From a virus (Duplodnaviria > Heunggongvirae > Uroviricota > Caudoviricetes): DNA of 16,592 nt. The DNA lies in IMG/VR virus record IMGVR_UViG_2531839664_000015, positions 1-16,592 of that record, one strand, 5' to 3'. Shown in pieces: positions 7,328-15,307 of the stretch; position 1 is the first letter of the stretch, and the number at the start of each line of letters is the position of its first letter. Position numbers and translations under genes: made by a program. Under the pieces are notes generated by a model, which worked only from the letters and a program-made list of their open reading frames with translations, was not told where the DNA came from and did no database searches.

Positions 7328-7360
7328 TAATATTTCCTCCGACAAAATCGTTTCTCAGAT

Positions 7361-8023
7361 TCAAATAAAACCAGCTGCCTTCCGGCGTTCGTATTCCTGT
7401 TTCAGCCGTTCAATTGGCGTTGGCCCTTGCGGGTGTTTCGCCCCTTCCAGTTGTCGTCGCACTGGCGGAACACTCATCCCGTTACCAACATGCTTTGCCC
7501 ATTTCGTCAGTTGCCGTTCCGCAAGTCGTTTTAACTCACCTTGCGTCATCTGGCGCTCAATCCCTCTGGTACGCATTTCGAGGCAGATGTGGTACAGCAC
7601 AGGCTGTGGCCACGGGTATTTATCACTCCCGTCGTATCGCCAGGATTCATTGCGCCAGCGCCGGTACTCTTCCATCACGGCATCCACCGTAAGACCAAAT
7701 GGATTTGCCCCACTCTCCGAAATCAGCGCAACAAACTCAGCCAGGTCCGGGGGCCACGTTTCACCCGCCCGGCAGCGGTCCATGCACTGACGGCACACCA
7801 GACGGATTTGCTGTTCAGTCATCGCACCAATCTGGGCAATCCAGAGCTTCGAAGGTGCGGCCCCGTTCTTCTGAGTCCAGCGGTTCGAATACACCTCCCC
7901 CATGAGCTCCCACAGCTTCCAGGCCGTTTCCGTTGCTGATAAATCCGTTGTCACGTTCCCACTGTTCGCGTGCAGCCCGGATTTCCTGAACTGCCCGTGA
8001 TGCCGTGCCACCTGATGCTGCAT
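7361..8023 (-). CDS. lambda P-like replication protein (helicase loader)
   Basis: Central and C-terminal blocks resemble lambda P as recalled (TEQQIRLVCRQ..., WPPDLAEFVALISE, VMEEYRRWRNESWRYDGSDKYPWP); ATG with a G-rich ribosome-binding site; sits directly after the O-like gene. Confidence 0.75.
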   Translation of the reverse strand: MQHQVARHHGQFRKSGLHANSGNVTTDLSATETAWKLWELMGEVYSNRWTQKNGAAPSKLWIAQIGAMTEQQIRLVCRQCMDRCRAGETWPPDLAEFVALISESGANPFGLTVDAVMEEYRRWRNESWRYDGSDKYPWPQPVLYHICLEMRTRGIERQMTQGELKRLAERQLTKWAKHVGNGMSVPPVRRQLEGAKHPQGPTPIERLKQEYERRKAAGFI

Positions 8024-8882
8024 GGCTTCCCCCCTTGCTGACTGGTTTTACCTGTGCCCTGACGTGCTGCACGTGGCGGGCAAATTTCTGCTCCCACTGA
8101 ACCTGCGTGAAAACCTTCCCCTCCGCCATCCAGTAATCCCGGAATGCGGCAAGCTCAGCAGGTGTAAATTCCGGCTCAGGCAGAGCCATACCCCACACTG
8201 CTGCCCGTTGTCGAAAATCCGGCGACGGCTGCCAGACAGTAGTCATCGGAAATTTCCCGATCGGTTCGCTCAGGCCGTCCAGGTATTCAGGTTCGGCTGT
8301 CTGCAACGGCGCACCATTCGACTCACTGGTCGGAATACTCTCGCGCGCGTTATGTGTGGGGTTTAATTCTGTATCTGTATCTTTATCTGTATCTTTATCT
8401 GTATCTTTATCTGTATCTTTATCTGTCGTGACTTGTCGTGACAGATGCGTGACACGTCGTGACTCATCGTGACAATCAGCATTATGTTTCCGCAGCTTTT
8501 CCCGCTCCCGCTGCGCTCTCTTGCGCTCTGCCGGGGATTTTGCCGTTTGCGAAACGTTACCATTGTCCTCTTTCAGCACCTGACGTTTTTCCCATCCGGA
8601 AATAAGGTCACCATCCAGAACCCGCCCCTGCATTGCATGCAAAATTGAATCAATTACGTCTTCCGTCACATCAAGCGCACTTGCTAAATCTTCCGTCGTG
8701 ACATCAATGTGACCACGTAGTGACACGCCGTGACATGTCGTGACATTTCGTGACGCACTCACCAGAAGATGGATATACACTGCCATCACTGTTGCGATTG
8801 GCTGTCCTGATACCCTGGCAATCGTTCGCCACTTGGGGTCATTTGGCATGTCATGCCACAATCTGAGCCAGGCATTAGCCAT
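7815..8882 (-). CDS. lambda O-like replication initiator with internal origin repeats
   Basis: 355 aa from the first ATG (the track start at 8888 is GTG). Sits immediately upstream of the P-like gene and contains phased iteron arrays and an AT-rich tandem repeat, as in ori-lambda; the repeat encodes a TDKDTDKD linker. Confidence 0.7.
   Translation of the reverse strand: MANAWLRLWHDMPNDPKWRTIARVSGQPIATVMAVYIHLLVSASRNVTTCHGVSLRGHIDVTTEDLASALDVTEDVIDSILHAMQGRVLDGDLISGWEKRQVLKEDNGNVSQTAKSPAERKRAQREREKLRKHNADCHDESRRVTHLSRQVTTDKDTDKDTDKDTDKDTDTELNPTHNARESIPTSESNGAPLQTAEPEYLDGLSEPIGKFPMTTVWQPSPDFRQRAAVWGMALPEPEFTPAELAAFRDYWMAEGKVFTQVQWEQKFARHVQHVRAQVKPVSKGGSHAASGGTASRAVQEIRAAREQWERDNGFISNGNGLEAVGAHGGGVFEPLDSEERGRTFEALDCPDWCDD
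8370..8423. repeat. AT-rich tandem repeat (hexamer TGTATC, then 4 copies of 12-bp unit TGTATCTTTATC); candidate DNA-unwinding element of the origin
   Basis: Direct reading: tgtatc + (tgtatctttatc) x4, lying next to the iteron array. Confidence 0.8.
8424..8473. repeat. iteron array 1: five CGTGAC direct repeats at 10-11 bp phasing (candidate ori iterons)
   Basis: CGTGAC begins at 8427, 8437, 8448, 8458 and 8468. Confidence 0.8.
8696..8753. repeat. iteron array 2: six GTGAC(A) direct repeats at 10-11 bp phasing
   Basis: GTGAC begins at 8697, 8708, 8719, 8729, 8739 and 8749, inside the 5' part of the O-like gene. Confidence 0.75.
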
Positions 8883-8950
8883 ACTCACCTCTTCTGATAC
8901 CGAACTTTACCCTCGAACATCCGGAAGAAATCCGGCATGAATATTGTTGG

Positions 8951-9376
8951 TCAATGCACGACAACAGCATTACCAGGCTGCCCCCCACTGTTAGTCAGGG
9001 TGCCCCAGGCGATCGCCGCTGCGACAAAATCATCCACATCTTTCACCAGCCGATCCCTCCGTTCGACGATCTCACGGTAATATTCAGAGCTGTGACTGCG
9101 CATACGGGCCACCAGCAGAGGCGGCATTGCCTTTTCGATCGCCGGTAACAGAGCCTGCATTTTTTCAACTGCATCAGGGGTGTCTTTCTCTATCCAGCGG
9201 AAAATTTTCTGGGTATTGCGAGCCAGGGCTTCCGGATGGCTGTCGTCGTACAGTTCAGGAAACGTCATACCCAACTCAAAATAAGCCTGGGTTATTCCAG
9301 CTGCCGGAACTTTTTCGCCATCAGGACGCGCCCAGGCATTCATCGCCATGCGGATGTGTTCATGCTTGATTTTCAT
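8951..9376 (-). CDS. ydaT: YdaT-family protein (cII-slot protein of Rac-type immunity regions)
   Basis: 141 aa from the ATG with a GGGGGGA ribosome-binding site; MKIKHEHIRMAMNAWARPDGEKVPAAGITQAYFELGMTFPELYDDSHPEALARNTQKIFRW... closely matches Rac YdaT as recalled. Confidence 0.85.
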   Translation of the reverse strand: MKIKHEHIRMAMNAWARPDGEKVPAAGITQAYFELGMTFPELYDDSHPEALARNTQKIFRWIEKDTPDAVEKMQALLPAIEKAMPPLLVARMRSHSSEYYREIVERRDRLVKDVDDFVAAAIAWGTLTNSGGQPGNAVVVH

Positions 9377-9602
9377 GAATCCCCCCTTGGTTAGAAGGCG
9401 GATTATGATCAGAATCGGGAATGACAACCGTCGGTATGTGTAACTCATATTTGAGCGCCCCGGCAGTGACTGCCTGAATTAGCAACGCCCATTTCCACGG
9501 AACGTCTTCCCCCCACATGCTGACTGTGGTTTTTGACGTTCCTAGAGCGGCGGCTGTTTTAACAACTCCGCCAAAATAGCCTAATACTTCTGATTTTTTC
9601 AT
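9360..9602 (-). CDS. Cro/YdaS-like helix-turn-helix regulator (80 aa)
   Basis: First gene of the minus-strand early operon, divergent from cI; helix-turn-helix segment VVKTAAALGTSKTTVSMWG; overlaps the ydaT start by 17 nt. Confidence 0.7.
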   Translation of the reverse strand: MKKSEVLGYFGGVVKTAAALGTSKTTVSMWGEDVPWKWALLIQAVTAGALKYELHIPTVVIPDSDHNPPSNQGGIHENQA

Positions 9603-9693
9603 GAGTCGCTCCATAAAACTGAACGCCAAAAGTTTAATAATCAAAACCAAAGAAAGTCAAGAAACAAAACCATCTGTGTTTTAAAATCAAAAC
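9603..9693. promoter_or_regulatory. divergent immunity control region (OR-like) with 18-bp palindrome TGTTTT-N6-AAAACA at 9677-9694
   Basis: 91-bp AT-rich intergenic region between divergent cro-like and cI-like genes; a perfect inverted repeat overlaps the cI start; a second partial palindrome AAAACT-N10-AGTTT lies at about 9616-9636. Confidence 0.5.
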
Positions 9694-10332
9694 ATGAACA
9701 AGCAAACAATATCTGAACGCATAACCCAACGTATGCATGCGCTAAACTTGAAAGGCAAAGACCTTGTCAATGCCACTGGCGCATCAAAAGGCTCCGTAAG
9801 TCAATGGATGAACGGTGGAGGAGCGCCGTCCTCGCGTTACATAAGTTCACTGGCAAAGATATTGAAAGTAAACGAAAATTGGCTTCTTAATGGAGGAGAG
9901 TTAAATACAGGTGATTCGCTTGATCTATCTTTACCGCCGATAAAAACGGTTCCGCTACTATCACTTCAGCAGGCAGCAAGCTGGAGTGATTATATGAAAA
10001 ATTCCTCAATAACCTCTTGTGTGCAGCTTGTCGGAGAAATCCCGGCCAATACCTTTGCTGTTGTTCTAGAGAGTGACAGTATGTCGACATCTGGTGGTGG
10101 AGTTTCCATCCCAAATGGTTCAACAGTTTTTGTTGATCCCGATCGAATCGTACAACCAGGAAATATTGTCCTTGCCTTACCCAAAGGGACCACAACGCCT
10201 GTCATTCGCAAACTGGAGATAGAAGGGCCGGATATTCTTTTAGTCCCCACGAATCCTCGCTACCCTTCAATTATGCTGGATGATCTATCTTGCATATTGG
10301 GAGTATGCTTTAAAATTCAACAAGATATTTAA
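9694..10332 (+). CDS. CI-like phage repressor (N-terminal helix-turn-helix plus C-terminal S24 LexA-like peptidase domain)
   Basis: 212 aa; helix-turn-helix LKGKDLVNATGASKGSVSQW; S24 motifs (AVVLESDSMS with the Ser nucleophile, downstream Lys in IRKLE). Confidence 0.9.
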   Translation: MNKQTISERITQRMHALNLKGKDLVNATGASKGSVSQWMNGGGAPSSRYISSLAKILKVNENWLLNGGELNTGDSLDLSLPPIKTVPLLSLQQAASWSDYMKNSSITSCVQLVGEIPANTFAVVLESDSMSTSGGGVSIPNGSTVFVDPDRIVQPGNIVLALPKGTTTPVIRKLEIEGPDILLVPTNPRYPSIMLDDLSCILGVCFKIQQDI

Positions 10333-10396
10333 CCAACCTCATCTATTTGATTAACTGTATGCCATCGTAGTGATGGCGTAACAGCTGCCTGCTTAA

Positions 10397-10445
10397 AATG
10401 TTTTGATAAAAAAACATTGACCTTAAATGTTCGTTTTTCTAAACT
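10397..10445 (+). promoter_or_regulatory. putative PL-like promoter (-35 TTGACC, 17-bp spacer, -10 TAAACT) overlapped by a second copy of the palindrome (10399-10416)
   Basis: Sigma-70-like hexamers at 10417-10422 and 10440-10445; the palindrome is identical in half-sites and spacing to the one at 9677-9694; a third AATGTT lies in the spacer. Confidence 0.4.
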
Positions 10446-10624
10446 TCATTCATTCCCTCACCCCGCCCCACAGAATGCAGGGCAATACTTCGAGTTACCA
10501 GGCAGTGGTCAGGGGTTAAGTAGCCAGCCCGAGGCGTAAGAACATGACGGCAGGGTTCAACTTTAATAACTATGCAGCAGGTTTTTGTTCCGCTACCCCG
10601 GCGTTAAGGGGAAATGAGGTCAAC

Positions 10625-10777
10625 ATGGATACGCTCAATCTTGGCAACAACGAATCTCTGGTATGTGGCGTGTTCCCCAACCAGGACGGTACGTTCACCG
10701 CGATGACGTATACCAAAAGCAAAACGTTTAAAACTGAAGCTGGCGCGCGTCGCTGGTTAGCCAGAAACACTGACTGA
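10625..10777 (+). CDS. small hypothetical protein (50 aa)
   Basis: ATG with GAGG at 5-nt spacing; stop overlaps the next ORF (TGATG). The 77-aa track ORF has no RBS at its first ATG. Confidence 0.5.
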   Translation: MDTLNLGNNESLVCGVFPNQDGTFTAMTYTKSKTFKTEAGARRWLARNTD

Positions 10778-10788
10778 TGAGGTTGACG

Positions 10789-11427
10789 ATGGAATTTAAA
10801 GATTTACCTCCTTCAATCCAGGAGATTGCAGCACACACACTTCGTCATCGTCTGAACGAACTTGAATTGGAATCGGTAACGAAAAAAGACACTGATAATA
10901 TGGCTCGTAATGTGCGCGATGCGTTTACCGGATTGTATTTCTGTGCGTCTATAAATAAACACGACTCAGAGAGTGTGGCAAATAAAATTGCAGAAACGAC
11001 AGCGCAAAACATCAATACGAAACCAACGGAAGAAGAAATTGATCAGTTTGCTCATGATGCTGGTTTAAAAAACAAGAAAGAAAAATCGCCATATGCGGGG
11101 AACATGTTTGTTTATGACAATCTCATCAGAATTCGTGGCGAAATTCCGGCGGAATACCTGGCAAGAGTCCATCAGGCATTGCTTAAAAATTTGGAAACAG
11201 AATTATTTGATGGCAACACTAACGGTTTCTTCATGGTATCAGGCCTTGAGAAAGACTGGGATGCAGAAAAACGCTGGAATGTTGCTACATGGTTATTCAG
11301 TAACAGAGCCGCTGCACTGGAAGCTTCGGCATGTATTTGCGGCCTGTTCTTAACAGACCACAAATATAATCTGGATGTGTACAGTTATATTTACGCTGAA
11401 CACGGTCCACTCTGGATTGACTGGTAA
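10789..11427 (+). CDS. hypothetical protein (212 aa), unknown function; cargo next to the immunity region
   Basis: ATG with GAGG at 6-nt spacing (the track start at 10777 has no RBS); translationally coupled to the 50-aa ORF; no recognisable motifs. Confidence 0.6.
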   Translation: MEFKDLPPSIQEIAAHTLRHRLNELELESVTKKDTDNMARNVRDAFTGLYFCASINKHDSESVANKIAETTAQNINTKPTEEEIDQFAHDAGLKNKKEKSPYAGNMFVYDNLIRIRGEIPAEYLARVHQALLKNLETELFDGNTNGFFMVSGLEKDWDAEKRWNVATWLFSNRAAALEASACICGLFLTDHKYNLDVYSYIYAEHGPLWIDW

Positions 11428-11637
11428 TTATAAGGAAACACCAGCAGGGCCGCGGCGACCAACAGAACGATTAAAATCAATAATGCCATTATAAAGGACA
11501 TTATTTAATTTATCGTCGAATGCTGATTCTGTGAGCCTCAACTCTGAATGAGTTTTTAATAACCCTGATTGCCTGAGTTGATTTACCAGGCATTCAATCT
11601 GTTTTTCAATAAGCGGATTTCTTTTTTTGTTTGGCAT
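11428..11637 (-). CDS. hypothetical small protein (69 aa), opposite in orientation to the surrounding operon
   Basis: Internal ATG with GGAGGA at 5-nt spacing; converges tail-to-tail with the 212-aa gene (stops adjacent). Confidence 0.45.
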   Translation of the reverse strand: MPNKKRNPLIEKQIECLVNQLRQSGLLKTHSELRLTESAFDDKLNNVLYNGIIDFNRSVGRRGPAGVSL

Positions 11638-12201
11638 TTTATCCTCCATTGAGGTTCTGGGTTAAAAATGGAGACCAACACGCTGTCACGTGTGGTCGTG
11701 CGCCGGACACGGATAAGAATCCGGTACTGACAGTTTACTGAAAGGATATTTCCCTGAAAAGTCAGTGCATAACGCGAAAGCGTACGGCGAAGCTCTTTCC
11801 CTTAGAAGGCTTGTCGTTAGATTTCTTCGAACGTGCGCTTCCGGTTGTGGCACTCCGCGAAATGGCGCGGCGGTAAGTATGGCGGGGTTATTCCTTCCCC
11901 ATTGAGGACACCGGGTTGTCAGGTTGACCATACGCTTAAGTGACAACCCCGCTGCAACGCCCTCTGTTATCAATTTTCTGGTGACGTTTGGCGGTATCAG
12001 TTTTACTCCGTGGCTGCTCTGCCGCCCTTTTTAAAGTGAATTTTGTGATGCGGTGAATGCGGCTAAGCGCACGCGGAACAGTTAAAACCAAAAACAGTGT
12101 TATGGGTGGATTCTCTGTATCCGGCGTTAATTGTTAACTGGTTAACGTCACCTGGAGGCACCAGGCACTGCATCACAAAATTCATTGTTGAGGACGCGAT
12201 A

Positions 12202-12390
12202 ATGGAAACGTTATTACCAAACGTTAATACGTCTGAAGGTTGTTTTGATATTGGTGTTCTGCTCAGTAACCGGGAGTTTACTGAAGATGCCATTAACATG
12301 AGGAAATATGAGCCTTATCTGCTCAATGATAATTCCATACTTTCCCGAATTGCTCTTCTTGAACTTGGTATTTTCGGAGAACGTCAATGA
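12202..12390 (+). CDS. small hypothetical protein (62 aa)
   Basis: ATG at 12202 with GAGGA at 7-nt spacing, shorter than the track ORF. Confidence 0.45.
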   Translation: METLLPNVNTSEGCFDIGVLLSNREFTEDAINMRKYEPYLLNDNSILSRIALLELGIFGERQ

Positions 12391-12575
12391 CTTCAGCATT
12401 TGCACTGATGATGACGGTTTTTCTTATAACGGGTGAATCACAGAATGTGATTACCGGAATTTATGCCAGTAAAGAATCCTGCCTCCAGGCAAGAGACGAG
12501 CAAAAAATTTCTGGTGAATGCCTCCCGGTAAAAAAAGTATCGCTGTACCTGAATAACGAAACACCGGCTGGATAA
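12387..12575 (+). CDS. small hypothetical protein (62 aa) with hydrophobic N-terminus
   Basis: ATGA overlap with the preceding ORF (translational coupling); N-terminal MTSAFALMMTVFLITG is signal or transmembrane-like. Confidence 0.45.
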   Translation: MTSAFALMMTVFLITGESQNVITGIYASKESCLQARDEQKISGECLPVKKVSLYLNNETPAG

Positions 12576-12667
12576 CCCTCCAGCCATATTAACACCATAC
12601 CAACGGATTAAAAATGCCAGCAATGGCAGGGATTTGTTCACCCTTAAATCTGTAATGAGGTTTATCA

Positions 12668-15130
12668 ATGAGCACTGATAAAGAAGAATTTGCGCTATAT
12701 TGCGAAGCAAAAAATGACAAAGTCAGAAAACGTCTGGGAATTAAAGGTGGTTTTTACTGGACTACAGCAAAAAAATTATCTGTTGCCATCTCCCGCTGCA
12801 TTACCGCAATGGATGACAACGATTATGATGAAGACGACTTTAAAAAACCCGTTCGCGTCCATTTACCCGTTGTGAATGACCTTCCACCTGAAGGCGTGTT
12901 TGATACCGAATTCTGCAACCGATACGAAAAAGGCGGGGAAGATGGCATTACAATGGTATTTATCGCGCCCTCTCCCTCCGTGCAGGAGAAACCAGCCAGT
13001 ACTGACAATACCAACGTCAACGGCGAAGACATGACGGAGATTGAGGAGAATATGCTCCTGCCGGTTTCTGGTCAGGAGCTGCCCATTCGCTGGCTTGCGC
13101 AACACGGCAGCGAAAAACCAGTAACGCACGTTGCACGGGAAGAACTTCAGGCATTACATATAGCACGGGCGGAAGAACTGCCGGCTGTTACTGCCCTGGC
13201 CATTTCTCACAAAACAAAGCTGCTCGACCCGCTGGAGATTCGCGACCTTCACAAACTGGTACGCGACACTGACAAAGTTTTCCCTAATCCCGGTAATTCA
13301 GACCTGGGACTGATAACTGCTTTTTTCGAGGCATACCTGGACGCTGACTACACTGATCGGGGTCTGCTGACAAAAGAGTGGATGAAAGGAAATCGTGTTT
13401 CGCGTATCACCCGTACGGCTTCCGGTGCAAATGCCGGTGGCGGGAACAAAACCGATCGCAATCCGAATTTAGTACACACCTTCGATACGCTGGATGTGGA
13501 GATTGCAGCAGCCACACTTCCGATGGATTTTAATATTTATGAAATTCCGGGCAGCGTTTATCGTCGCGCAAAAGAAATCGTCCTGAAAAGAGAAAGTCCG
13601 TTCAAAGAATGGTCCGCAGCACTTCGCGCAACCCCGGGTATTCTGGACTATTCCCGCGCCGCTATTTTTGCACTTATCCGGAGCGCTCACCCTGAGTTTT
13701 ATCACTACCCGGGACGCCTTCAGGGGTATATCAACGCCTACTTAACGGAGACTGATCACGAGAACCCCAGCAAGGAAACTCTCACTGCTGCACGACATAC
13801 ACCGGAAAAAGATATCCTGGAAGAAGTTAACCGCGAACTGTCTGCTAAGCAGGAAACAGAAGAAGAAGAAAATGATGAAGAAAAACCGCAACCATCTTGC
13901 GCAATGGCAGATGAACAGGCAACGGCTGAAACAGTGGAACCGGATGCAACTGAACATCATCAGGACACGCAGCCGCTGGATGCTCAGTCACAGGTAAATT
14001 CTGTTGATGCGAAATATCAGAAACTGCGGGCAGAACTCCATGAAGCCCGGAAAAACATTCCGCCCCAAAATCCTGTCGATGCAGACAAATTACTGGCTGC
14101 CTCTCGCGGAGAATTTGTTGAAGGGATTAGCGACCCGAATGATCCGAAATGGATTAAGGGGATCCAGACCCGCGATTCTGTGTACCAGAACCAGCAAGAA
14201 ACGGAACAGAACGACCAGAAAGCGGAACAAAACAGCCCAAATGCGTTACAAAACGAGCCAGAAACGAAACAGCCTGAACCAGTGGCGCAACAGGAAGTGG
14301 AAAAAGTCTGCACCGCCTGCGGTCAGACCGGCGGCGGCAACTGCCCTGATTGTGGCGCGGTGATGGGCGACGCAACATACCAGGAAACCTTCGATGACAA
14401 GAACCTGGTTGAAGTTCAGGAAGACGATTCGGAGAAAATGGAAGGCGCTGAACATCCACACAAGGAGAATGCTGGCAGCGCTCAGGACCACGCCAGCGAT
14501 AGTGAAACTGGCGAGACGGCAGATCCCTTAATTACGGTGAACGGTCATCACGTTATCACATCCACCAGCAGGACGTGTGACCATCTAATGATCGACCTTG
14601 AAACCATGGGAAAAAATCCTGATGCCCCGATTATCTCAATAGGTGCAATATTTTTCGATCCGCAAACCGGAGATATGGGACCGGAATTTAGTAAGACTAT
14701 CGATCTGGAAACTGCTGGCGGAGTCATTGATCGGGACACCATTAAATGGTGGCTTAAGCAATCACGCGAAGCGCAATCTGCCATTATGACCGATGAAATC
14801 CCGTTAGATGATGCACTGTTACAATTGCGGGAATTTATCGACGAAAACTCCGGTGAATTTTTTGTTCAGGTCTGGGGAAATGGAGCCAACTTCGACAACA
14901 CGATTTTGCGCCGTTCATACGAACGGCAGGGGATCCCCTGCCCGTGGCGTTACTACAACGATCGCGATGTGCGCACAATCGTTGAGCTGGGGAAAGCCAT
15001 AGACTTCGATGCCAGAACGGCTATTCCATTCGAAGGTGAGCGCCATAATGCACTTGATGACGCCCGTTACCAGGCAAAATACGTTTCAGTTATCTGGCAA
15101 AAACTGATCCCGAGTCAGGCTGATTCTTAA
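12668..15130 (+). CDS. RecE-like (exodeoxyribonuclease VIII-like) protein with C-terminal DEDDh/DnaQ-like 3'-5' exonuclease domain
   Basis: 820 aa; ATG with an AATGAGG ribosome-binding site. N-terminal and central segments resemble the non-catalytic region of Rac RecE as recalled; acidic linker; CxxC...CxxC zinc-ribbon ([16 protein letters not shown]). The C-terminal ~190 aa carry the three DEDDh motifs DLETMG, GNGANFD and HNALDDA. Confidence 0.8.
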
Positions 15131-15201
15131 TGTTCAACTGTCGCCGGTTGTGACTGGTATTCTGCAACCGGCGCTCGTCTGATGTAAGAGATAAAGAAGC
15201 G

Positions 15202-15243
15202 ATGAGCGAAGTAATCATGATTGTCTCTCCCGGCAAATGGGTA
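15202..15243 (+). pseudogene. 5' fragment (14 codons) of a small ORF interrupted by the IS element
   Basis: ATG at 15202 (MSEVIMIVSPGKWV) runs into the IS left end; the same frame continues after the IS (SEEQLIALKGIKKGTLKKAREKSFMEG...) once one copy of the GTA duplication is removed. Confidence 0.5.
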
Positions 15244-15307
15244 TGAGGTAGCCTGAGTTTAACGGACACTCCTTCCTGAAATAGAATGGCATCAGAAGGA
15301 GCTAATA

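Follow-up and report, generated by a model that had tools for sequence, protein, structure and literature searches.

Several phages carry their replication origin within the initiator gene, as iterons with an A/T-rich region next to them. This arrangement is established for lambda, P22, phage L and the Stx phages (PMC8022706, PMC7466680), and an intragenic origin is also known for SPP1, where oriL lies in gene 38 (PMC5737612, PMC6316719). Gene 18 of phage L contains six 11-bp repeats and gene 18 of P22 four repeats of ~20 bp (PMC8022706), and in the Stx phages 933W and P27, which have 6-iteron origins, the extra iterons add 13 amino acids to the initiator (PMC7466680). SPP1 G38P binds two discrete regions with the same repeats, oriL and oriR (PMC5737612, PMC6316719). 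Intragenic iteron origins as such, as well as the one-turn 11-bp repeats of phage L gene 18, are already known. Here we analysed a 16,592-nt stretch of DNA of a tailed phage (IMG/VR record IMGVR_UViG_2531839664_000015, positions 1 to 16,592; in the following termed the window), which matches a prophage of E. coli O121 str. RM8352 with 100% identity and in which two arrays of short direct repeats and an A/T-rich tandem repeat are located within a single gene. Judged from its sequence and from those of its relatives, this element is probably a two-part replication origin of a lambdoid prophage that resides inside the gene of its own initiator.

The initiator gene occupies the position of O in the lambdoid early-right operon on the minus strand. 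Along the direction of transcription it carries a first block of iterons (array A), which starts ~130 nt into the gene, upstream of the remaining replication operon, then a second block (array B) after a gap of 224 bp and, adjoining array B, an A/T-rich 12-bp tandem repeat (Table 1). All 11 array sites have the same orientation, with GTCAC on the coding (minus) strand. Array A coincides with the codons of residues ~43-62 of the initiator, array B encodes CHDESRRVTHLSRQVT, with which the inter-domain linker begins, and the 12-bp repeat encodes TDKDTDKDTDKDTDKDTDTE, i.e. a TDKD linker. The repeat unit identified by Tandem Repeats Finder (TRF) is TCTTTATCTGTA (97% matches), which corresponds to GATAAAGATACA on the coding strand and is purine-rich there. 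With a GC content of ~0.24-0.30 (~0.28-0.32 in 60-bp windows, as compared to ~0.55 in the surroundings) and a strong strand asymmetry, this tract has the lowest duplex stability of any 50-bp stretch in the window (nearest-neighbour free energy, dG, -53.3 vs -70.3 +/- 4.8); the remaining low-stability stretches are mostly intergenic. The single inverted iteron core near array A encodes the VT of 'DVTE'; its GTG ACx is kept in 4/4 aligned sequences, and the core is conserved in relatives of the GTCAC type, including the Aeromonas and Pseudomonas phages. The arrays and the tandem repeat had been predicted at 8370-8753 by an earlier reading of the sequence, and every element was recovered within 1 bp of its predicted place, the only correction being that the last GTGAC of the second array ends at 8754 and not at 8753. 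The predicted linker peptide, too, agrees with the translation.

Table 1. Features of the window with their positions, strands and main properties
Feature	Position	Strand	Properties
Array A	8698-8754	minus	six GTCAC(G) iterons, spacing 10, 10, 10, 11, 11 bp, consensus about TGTCACGAC; plus-strand GTGAC at 8698, 8709, 8720, 8730, 8740, 8750
21-bp segment of array A	8718-8738	minus	7 codons (TCHGVSL), two iteron units
Single inverted iteron core	8665-8669		GTCAC on plus strand; ~30 bp downstream of array A along transcription
Array B	8427-8473	minus	five GTCACG iterons, spacing 10, 10, 11, 10 bp; plus-strand CGTGAC at 8427, 8437, 8448, 8458, 8468
A/T-rich 12-bp tandem repeat, candidate DNA unwinding element	8368-8426	minus	4.9 copies (TRF)
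Replication initiator gene	7815-8882	minus	355 amino acids, ATG at 8882
Lambda-P-like helicase-loader gene	7361-7822	minus	153 amino acids; Pfam Phage_lambda_P, E=1.3e-15
YdaT/cII-position protein	8951-9448		early-right operon, upstream of initiator
P22-Cro-like protein	9360-9650		early-right operon
CI-like S24 repressor	9694-10332	plus	
hok/sok-type toxin-antitoxin locus	4418-4742		nin region; Rfam sok, 113.5 bits, at 4568-4742
tRNA-Arg(tct)	22-98		downstream of Q-like gene
tRNA-Met(cat)	199-274		downstream of Q-like gene
DicF small RNA	11976-12027		early-left region, upstream of RecE-like gene; Rfam, 75 bits
RecE-like exonuclease VIII gene	12668-15130		
IS3-family transposase	15308-16526		rve domain; opposite window end, past RecE-like gene

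As in ori-lambda, the direct repeats are located in the gene of the cognate initiator at an inter-domain linker, the A/T-rich region comes next along transcription, and a P-type helicase loader is the partner. In contrast to lambda, the initiator is not an O homologue, and the iterons are one-turn repeats of ~10 bp instead of ~19 bp. Moreover, lambda has a single contiguous array, whereas here a second array is present 224 bp upstream in the codons of the DNA-binding domain, and the A/T-rich element is built as a 6/12-bp tandem repeat containing a motif conserved across phyla.

The iteron core is concentrated in the two arrays. CGTGAC occurs 19 times in the window as compared to 6.9 +/- 2.6 occurrences expected from 200 dinucleotide-preserving shuffles (largest value 15), with 9 of the 19 copies being part of arrays A and B. 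The spaced pair GTCAC-N5-GTCAC has six exact matches in the window, all of them within the two arrays, and 8 matches if one mismatch is allowed (0.7 +/- 0.9 expected). No third array was detected in the 16.6-kb window.

The repeats were confirmed to be DNA-level elements under selection and not coding periodicity. The array period of 10-11 bp is not divisible by 3, so that the reading frame changes from copy to copy and all three frames are used (giving SR, VT, CH and GH), which speaks against coding periodicity. Further, we compared synonymous sites with the homologues from Aeromonas pAEv1818 (67% amino acid identity) and Pseudomonas phage phi1 (65%), with the iteron sites taken from the window sequence only. 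Where the third base of a codon lies within a GTCAC, the codon was identical in both homologues in 10 of 10 cases (6/6 in array A, 4/4 in array B), but only in 16 of 68 cases elsewhere (Fisher p=4e-6).

Comparison of repeat copy numbers across related prophages, as suggested by the original prediction, revealed variation in whole units, and the expectation that a change in copy number alters both the origin and the protein was borne out. Array A has either six or four copies in the relatives, the difference being an in-frame step of 21 bp or 7 codons, i.e. the TCHGVSL segment, which is present in the 6-copy and missing in the 4-copy form according to a codon alignment and a protein comparison of loci L001-L010. 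The homologue P0033 contains an independent 30-bp insertion, and the peptides encoded by the inserted units are unrelated (TCHGVSL and SQGVTNCHGE). Array B comprises 3-6 copies among 80 close viral relatives, and the 12-bp repeat ranges from 0 to ~11 six-bp units. One additional 10-bp unit in array B (L036, L050) or one unit fewer (L085) causes a frameshift, and the protein is truncated at 157 amino acids. Together with L011 (Escherichia phage 204576), these three IMG/VR loci have initiators of 157-165 amino acids of which only the DNA-binding N-terminus is left. Such truncated initiators could inhibit replication in decaying prophages by blocking the origin, or their presence may be no more than a sign of prophage decay or of an assembly error.

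The two-array arrangement is not restricted to the close relatives. We retrieved 56 loci with 43-92% identity from contigs representing one genome per species, and scanned the initiator gene in each of the 50 analysable ones. In 40 of these a single 5-mer occurs in phased runs both at nt ~130-165 and at nt ~340-430 of the gene, a two-zone score that was reached by none of 1000 codon-shuffled controls. The loci span Gamma-, Beta- and Alphaproteobacteria, Acidobacteria and one metagenome-assembled genome of a planctomycete. The iteron core differs between lineages, being GTCACG, (C)GAACGC, TAACGC, GACGC or CGTCAC, yet arrays A and B of one locus share it, and the spacing within the arrays is 10 bp in 168 and 11 bp in 35 instances. 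Iteron type does not track the host taxon, with both Pseudomonas and the betaproteobacteria containing both types, which argues for a phage-encoded reader. From the last site of array A to the first site of array B the median distance is 228 bp (range 127-340 bp in the 40 loci).

The A/T-rich tract is likewise a property of the family. The 40 nt past array B consist of 70% A+T in the 40 loci, as compared to 45% in the whole gene, with 76% purines on the coding strand. In nearly all of these loci the tract opens with the motif (C/T)AGATAAAGATA, which is in another reading frame in some of them. In the form (C/T)AGATAAAGATA(A/C)AGA it is conserved at the DNA level past array B from Enterobacteria to Acidobacteria and Alphaproteobacteria (L098-L151) and is also present in Rac ydaU. 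Rather than being just a generic A/T-rich tract, the motif may serve, for instance, as a site recognised by a conserved component of the host or the loader. The iteron-plus-unwinding-element layout that had been proposed for the window is in line with all of these results: DNA-level constraint, the lowest duplex stability, polarity and co-variation throughout the family.

Next to the repeats, the initiator itself is informative. A DnaT single-stranded DNA (ssDNA)-binding domain (PF17948) was identified at residues 211-277 (E=1.6e-17), and DnaT chains in the PDB match the protein with E values of about 1e-19 to 1e-20. The full-length DnaT equivalog NF002770, however, reaches only 93.7 bits (cutoff 201) and is matched at profile positions 82-156 only, indicating that the initiator has a domain in common with DnaT without being DnaT itself. 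Its N-terminal 150 amino acids match PHROG families of 'replication initiation proteins', and some members of the family are labelled 'phage replisome organizer' by PGAP. TIGR01714 (Phage_rep_org_N) aligns end-to-end, if weakly (E=0.0034, 17.6 bits, cutoff 49.8), and PF09681 is matched weakly by 3 of 44 initiator homologues. Membership in the lambda O family was rejected as Phage_rep_O gave no match to the initiator even at E<=10. Designation of the gene as O-like is therefore appropriate as to position and function, but not as to the domains, a DnaD-like N-terminus and a DnaT-like C-terminus being present instead.

An AlphaFold2 model built on 44 sequences (mean predicted local distance difference test score, pLDDT, 71.6; core 86-93) contains helices at residues 2-11, 16-25, 29-45, 63-70 and 74-84, followed by a beta wing and a basic helix at 117-134. 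The N-terminus (residues 1-~100) is a winged-helix fold resembling the N-terminal domain (NTD) of DnaD. The residues encoded by array A form a low-confidence loop or hairpin between helices of this domain in the model, and array B together with the 12-bp repeat encodes a disordered linker (residues ~137-170) between the winged-helix and the DnaT domains. Profile sequence searches yielded no solved structure for the N-terminal domain, a Foldseek search of the model against the PDB gave no significant match, and sequence homology to SPP1 G38P was not detectable (hhalign probability 0.1%).

From these domain identities and from the model systems named above we infer how the origin might work. Array B, which presents one iteron per helical turn on one face of the DNA, and the adjoining purine-biased 12-bp repeat would form the core origin. 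Several copies of the initiator would bind to the iterons via the N-terminal region containing the DnaD-like winged helix and the basic helix, and the low-stability tract beside the iterons would melt, possibly aided by transcription from pR through this tract. The DnaT-like ssDNA-binding domain could then capture single strands and, together with the co-translated P-like protein, bring the host DnaB helicase to the opened DNA. Array A, lying in the codons of a presumably permissive loop of the DNA-binding domain, would serve as an auxiliary, conserved second binding block for the same initiator. Most likely it would cooperate with array B by oligomerisation of the initiator, either through looping or wrapping of the ~225 bp in between or by raising the local initiator concentration, and a feedback effect on replication operon transcription or on copy control is possible as well.

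Several observations weigh against this two-part origin. There are no convincing DnaA boxes or GATC clusters near the element (nor convincing cores for integration host factor, IHF). The gap between arrays A and B has no significant preference for a helical phase (Rayleigh p about 0.15), so that a rigid loop is not supported. Under the criteria used, about 10 of the 50 loci have no clear array A, L135 for example carrying seven copies in array B only, so that array A is not indispensable. Finally, the predicted helix-turn-helix (HTH; residues 63-84, ~8631-8696) barely differs between the GTCACG and CGAACGC types, and N-terminal identity with the array-encoded residues masked is nearly as high between iteron types (0.61) as within a type (0.67).

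Loci such as L135, where array A is missing as might be the case for a non-essential control element, and the lack of a phase preference are also what one would see if array B and the A/T-rich tract made up the whole origin and array A were a control site outside firing, a reading that we consider possible, though rather unlikely. The initiator bound to array A would then block transcription from pR and exert negative feedback both on the synthesis of initiator and loader and on the activation of the origin by transcription. Array A might instead pair origins or titrate the initiator, like the iterons of P1 incA and F incC. Its place early in the gene, ahead of all other parts of the replication operon, suits such a role. 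A site that competes for one protein would moreover be expected to match array B in sequence and orientation and to vary together with it, and array A does both. SPP1 G38P also has a second, non-initiating binding region, oriR, which is thought to stall forks (PMC6316719). Control and cooperation are compatible with each other, though, and scans for internal promoter or terminator signals remained at chance level.

The near-constant HTH would be in keeping with the arrays being bound not by the initiator but by another protein, i.e. a host factor, CI, Cro or a YdaT/cII-like protein, and in the E. coli loci a YdaT-like gene is indeed located just upstream. We nevertheless regard this as improbable. 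A host factor is difficult to reconcile with the independence of iteron type from host taxonomy, and the same arrays are found beside differing regulators of the Cro, CI and YdaS type in L004-L010. Pseudomonas phage phi1 and Ralstonia phage Firinga have arrays with no annotated YdaT-like neighbour, and at recombination junctions the arrays always stay with the N-terminal module. Least credible of all, and close to negligible, is the idea that the repeats have no function at the DNA level and are by-products of repeated peptide motifs or slippage-prone sequence kept for the peptide. SRNVT...RGH..VT and CH..SR.VT are near-invariant in the 44 homologues and the TDKD linker does resemble an ordinary low-complexity linker, but synonymous positions are frozen only within the sites, the inserted units give unrelated peptides, and the frame of the A-rich motif varies by locus. 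Purely coding periodicity, the outcome against which the original prediction was to be measured, is thus contradicted by the use of three frames, by the frozen synonymous sites and by the joint switching of the core in arrays A and B across lineages.

If the initiator is the reader of the iterons, as the two-part origin implies, its recognition element may lie outside the canonical HTH. A difference in the HTH between iteron types had been expected and was not found. Positions that do discriminate between the types are the loop encoded by array A, a 9-residue indel at ~103-111 and the basic helix (Q117 vs W/Y/F), and with the HTH being near-constant the candidates for iteron reading are the basic helix 117-134, the 9-residue indel and the array A-encoded loop. 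Of all segments it is this loop that co-varies most tightly with the iteron sequence. It is conceivable, although we hold it to be unlikely, that the loop, along with the basic helix, is part of the iteron reading head, in which case specificity determinant and binding site would be one and the same stretch of DNA. If true, protein specificity and target sequence would be tied to each other by this single stretch. In a milder form, array A may be an autoregulatory roadblock or a handcuffing site within the codons of the DNA-binding domain, across thousands of prophages.

The matches of the initiator gene to phages are mosaic. The C-terminal half of the initiator resembles ydaU of Rac-SA53 and the N-terminal half the phages 640R1 and Evi, with homology switching between the phage groups at 8392-8398, inside the 12-bp repeat. 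In the family the linker connects one and the same N-terminal module and its arrays with DnaT-like, 'IPPGFRG'-ending and numerous further C-terminal modules, and the partners of these differing modules are P-like or DnaC-like. The A/T-rich linker is a recombination junction for the exchange of N-terminal (specificity) and C-terminal (loader-recruiting) modules, and exchange exactly at this position is expected if the N-terminal domain and the iterons form one specificity unit. In this respect the window resembles lambda and the Stx phages 933W and P27, in which the N-terminal domain and the iterons constitute one exchangeable specificity module.

Two separated clusters of the same site by an initiator gene are known from P1 (oriR/incA), F (incB/incC) and the bipartite oriC regions flanking dnaA in B. 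subtilis and H. pylori, where one cluster serves firing and the other control or cooperative looping. Like the P1 incA type, the window has a second iteron cluster, identical in core and orientation to the one at the unwinding element and separate from it. In P1, F and the bipartite oriC regions, however, the clusters are non-coding and flank the gene, whereas both arrays of the window lie within coding sequence and therefore also shape the protein. RepA_N initiators (structures 4pta and 4pql) belong to Firmicutes plasmids and have no sequence similarity to the initiator of the window, and we know of no second array in the NTD codons of this group.

Gene 18 of phage L and P22 is comparable to the window in having short direct repeats of roughly one turn in a lambdoid initiator gene, and the origin was proposed from sequence alone there as well. 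It differs in that a single array with the iteron TGTCCAACGGA is reported in a different protein family; a second array and co-variation are not described for it. SPP1 G38P is a DnaD-like 'replisome organizer' with an origin in the middle of its gene that consists of repeats and an A/T-rich DNA unwinding element (PMC5737612, PMC6316719). Its second binding region is ~13 kb away and intergenic, whereas array A is only 224 bp away in the same gene. In our scan of SPP1 gene 38 (L155, 525-650) mid-gene AGAAACG-like repeats are followed by a 9-bp A-rich tandem repeat with a GC content of 0.28 and an AT skew of up to 0.93, a layout of the same kind as in the window despite the lack of detectable homology at the protein sequence level.

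YdaU of the Rac prophage corresponds to the window initiator in its position in the operon, in the linker DNA GATAAAGATACAGATAAAGAT and in having the same alternative C-terminal modules, but its N-terminal domain is DUF1376. In E. coli K-12 (L003) ydaU (3266-3579) contains five of the six exact matches to GRTGTTSAA within 8 kb, three copies being located just before the GATAAAGATACAGATAAAGAT linker and two in the DUF1376 codons. Rac has an active origin, oriJ (PMC3945230), for which we found no placing at the sequence level in the literature. The distribution of the GRTGTTSAA copies suggests that oriJ lies in ydaU and that initiators of the DUF1376 type may share the two-part layout.

Sequence related to the window prophage is present in 1818 of 5426 complete E. 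coli genomes (~1/3). In the replication operon the ATG of the P-like gene at 7822 overlaps the stop codon of the initiator gene (ATGA; 7815-7822), suggesting translational coupling, and the start of the longest open reading frame of the P-like gene at 8023 is probably not used. The homologue of this gene is annotated as 'replication protein P' in relatives, and a gene for a DUF1627 protein follows it in the operon. Farther from the initiator the window contains the nin region, with the hok/sok locus, RusA and a Q-like antiterminator, as well as two tRNAs, DicF, the RecE-like exonuclease and a transposase of the IS3 type (Table 1).

We found no description in the literature of a second array in the codons of the DNA-binding domain of an initiator, nor of conservation across phyla with co-varying sequence and a conserved AGATAAAGATA tract; the literature searched covered few papers of subscription journals, so that an earlier description is possible. 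Most origins of temperate phages and prophages are not annotated, and the layout described here would provide a sequence rule for one large initiator family in several phyla: two one-turn-phased arrays with a lineage-specific core of 6-7 bp at fixed positions of the initiator gene, followed by a tract of the (C/T)AGATAAAGATA type. Applied to sequence, this rule gives candidate origins as well as candidate incompatibility or specificity groups (GTCACG, CGAACGC, TAACGC and others). With regard to phage replication, the second array in the domain codons invites questions on looping, feedback and the control of copy number. The element would also be a clean case of overlapping codes, with an origin being written over protein-coding sequence. 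The seemingly invariant residues SRNVT..RGH..VT of the DNA-binding domain would be frozen because the DNA encoding them is a putative binding site, indels occur only in steps of 21 or 30 bp, and slippage by a single unit results in truncated proteins that retain only the DNA-binding part.

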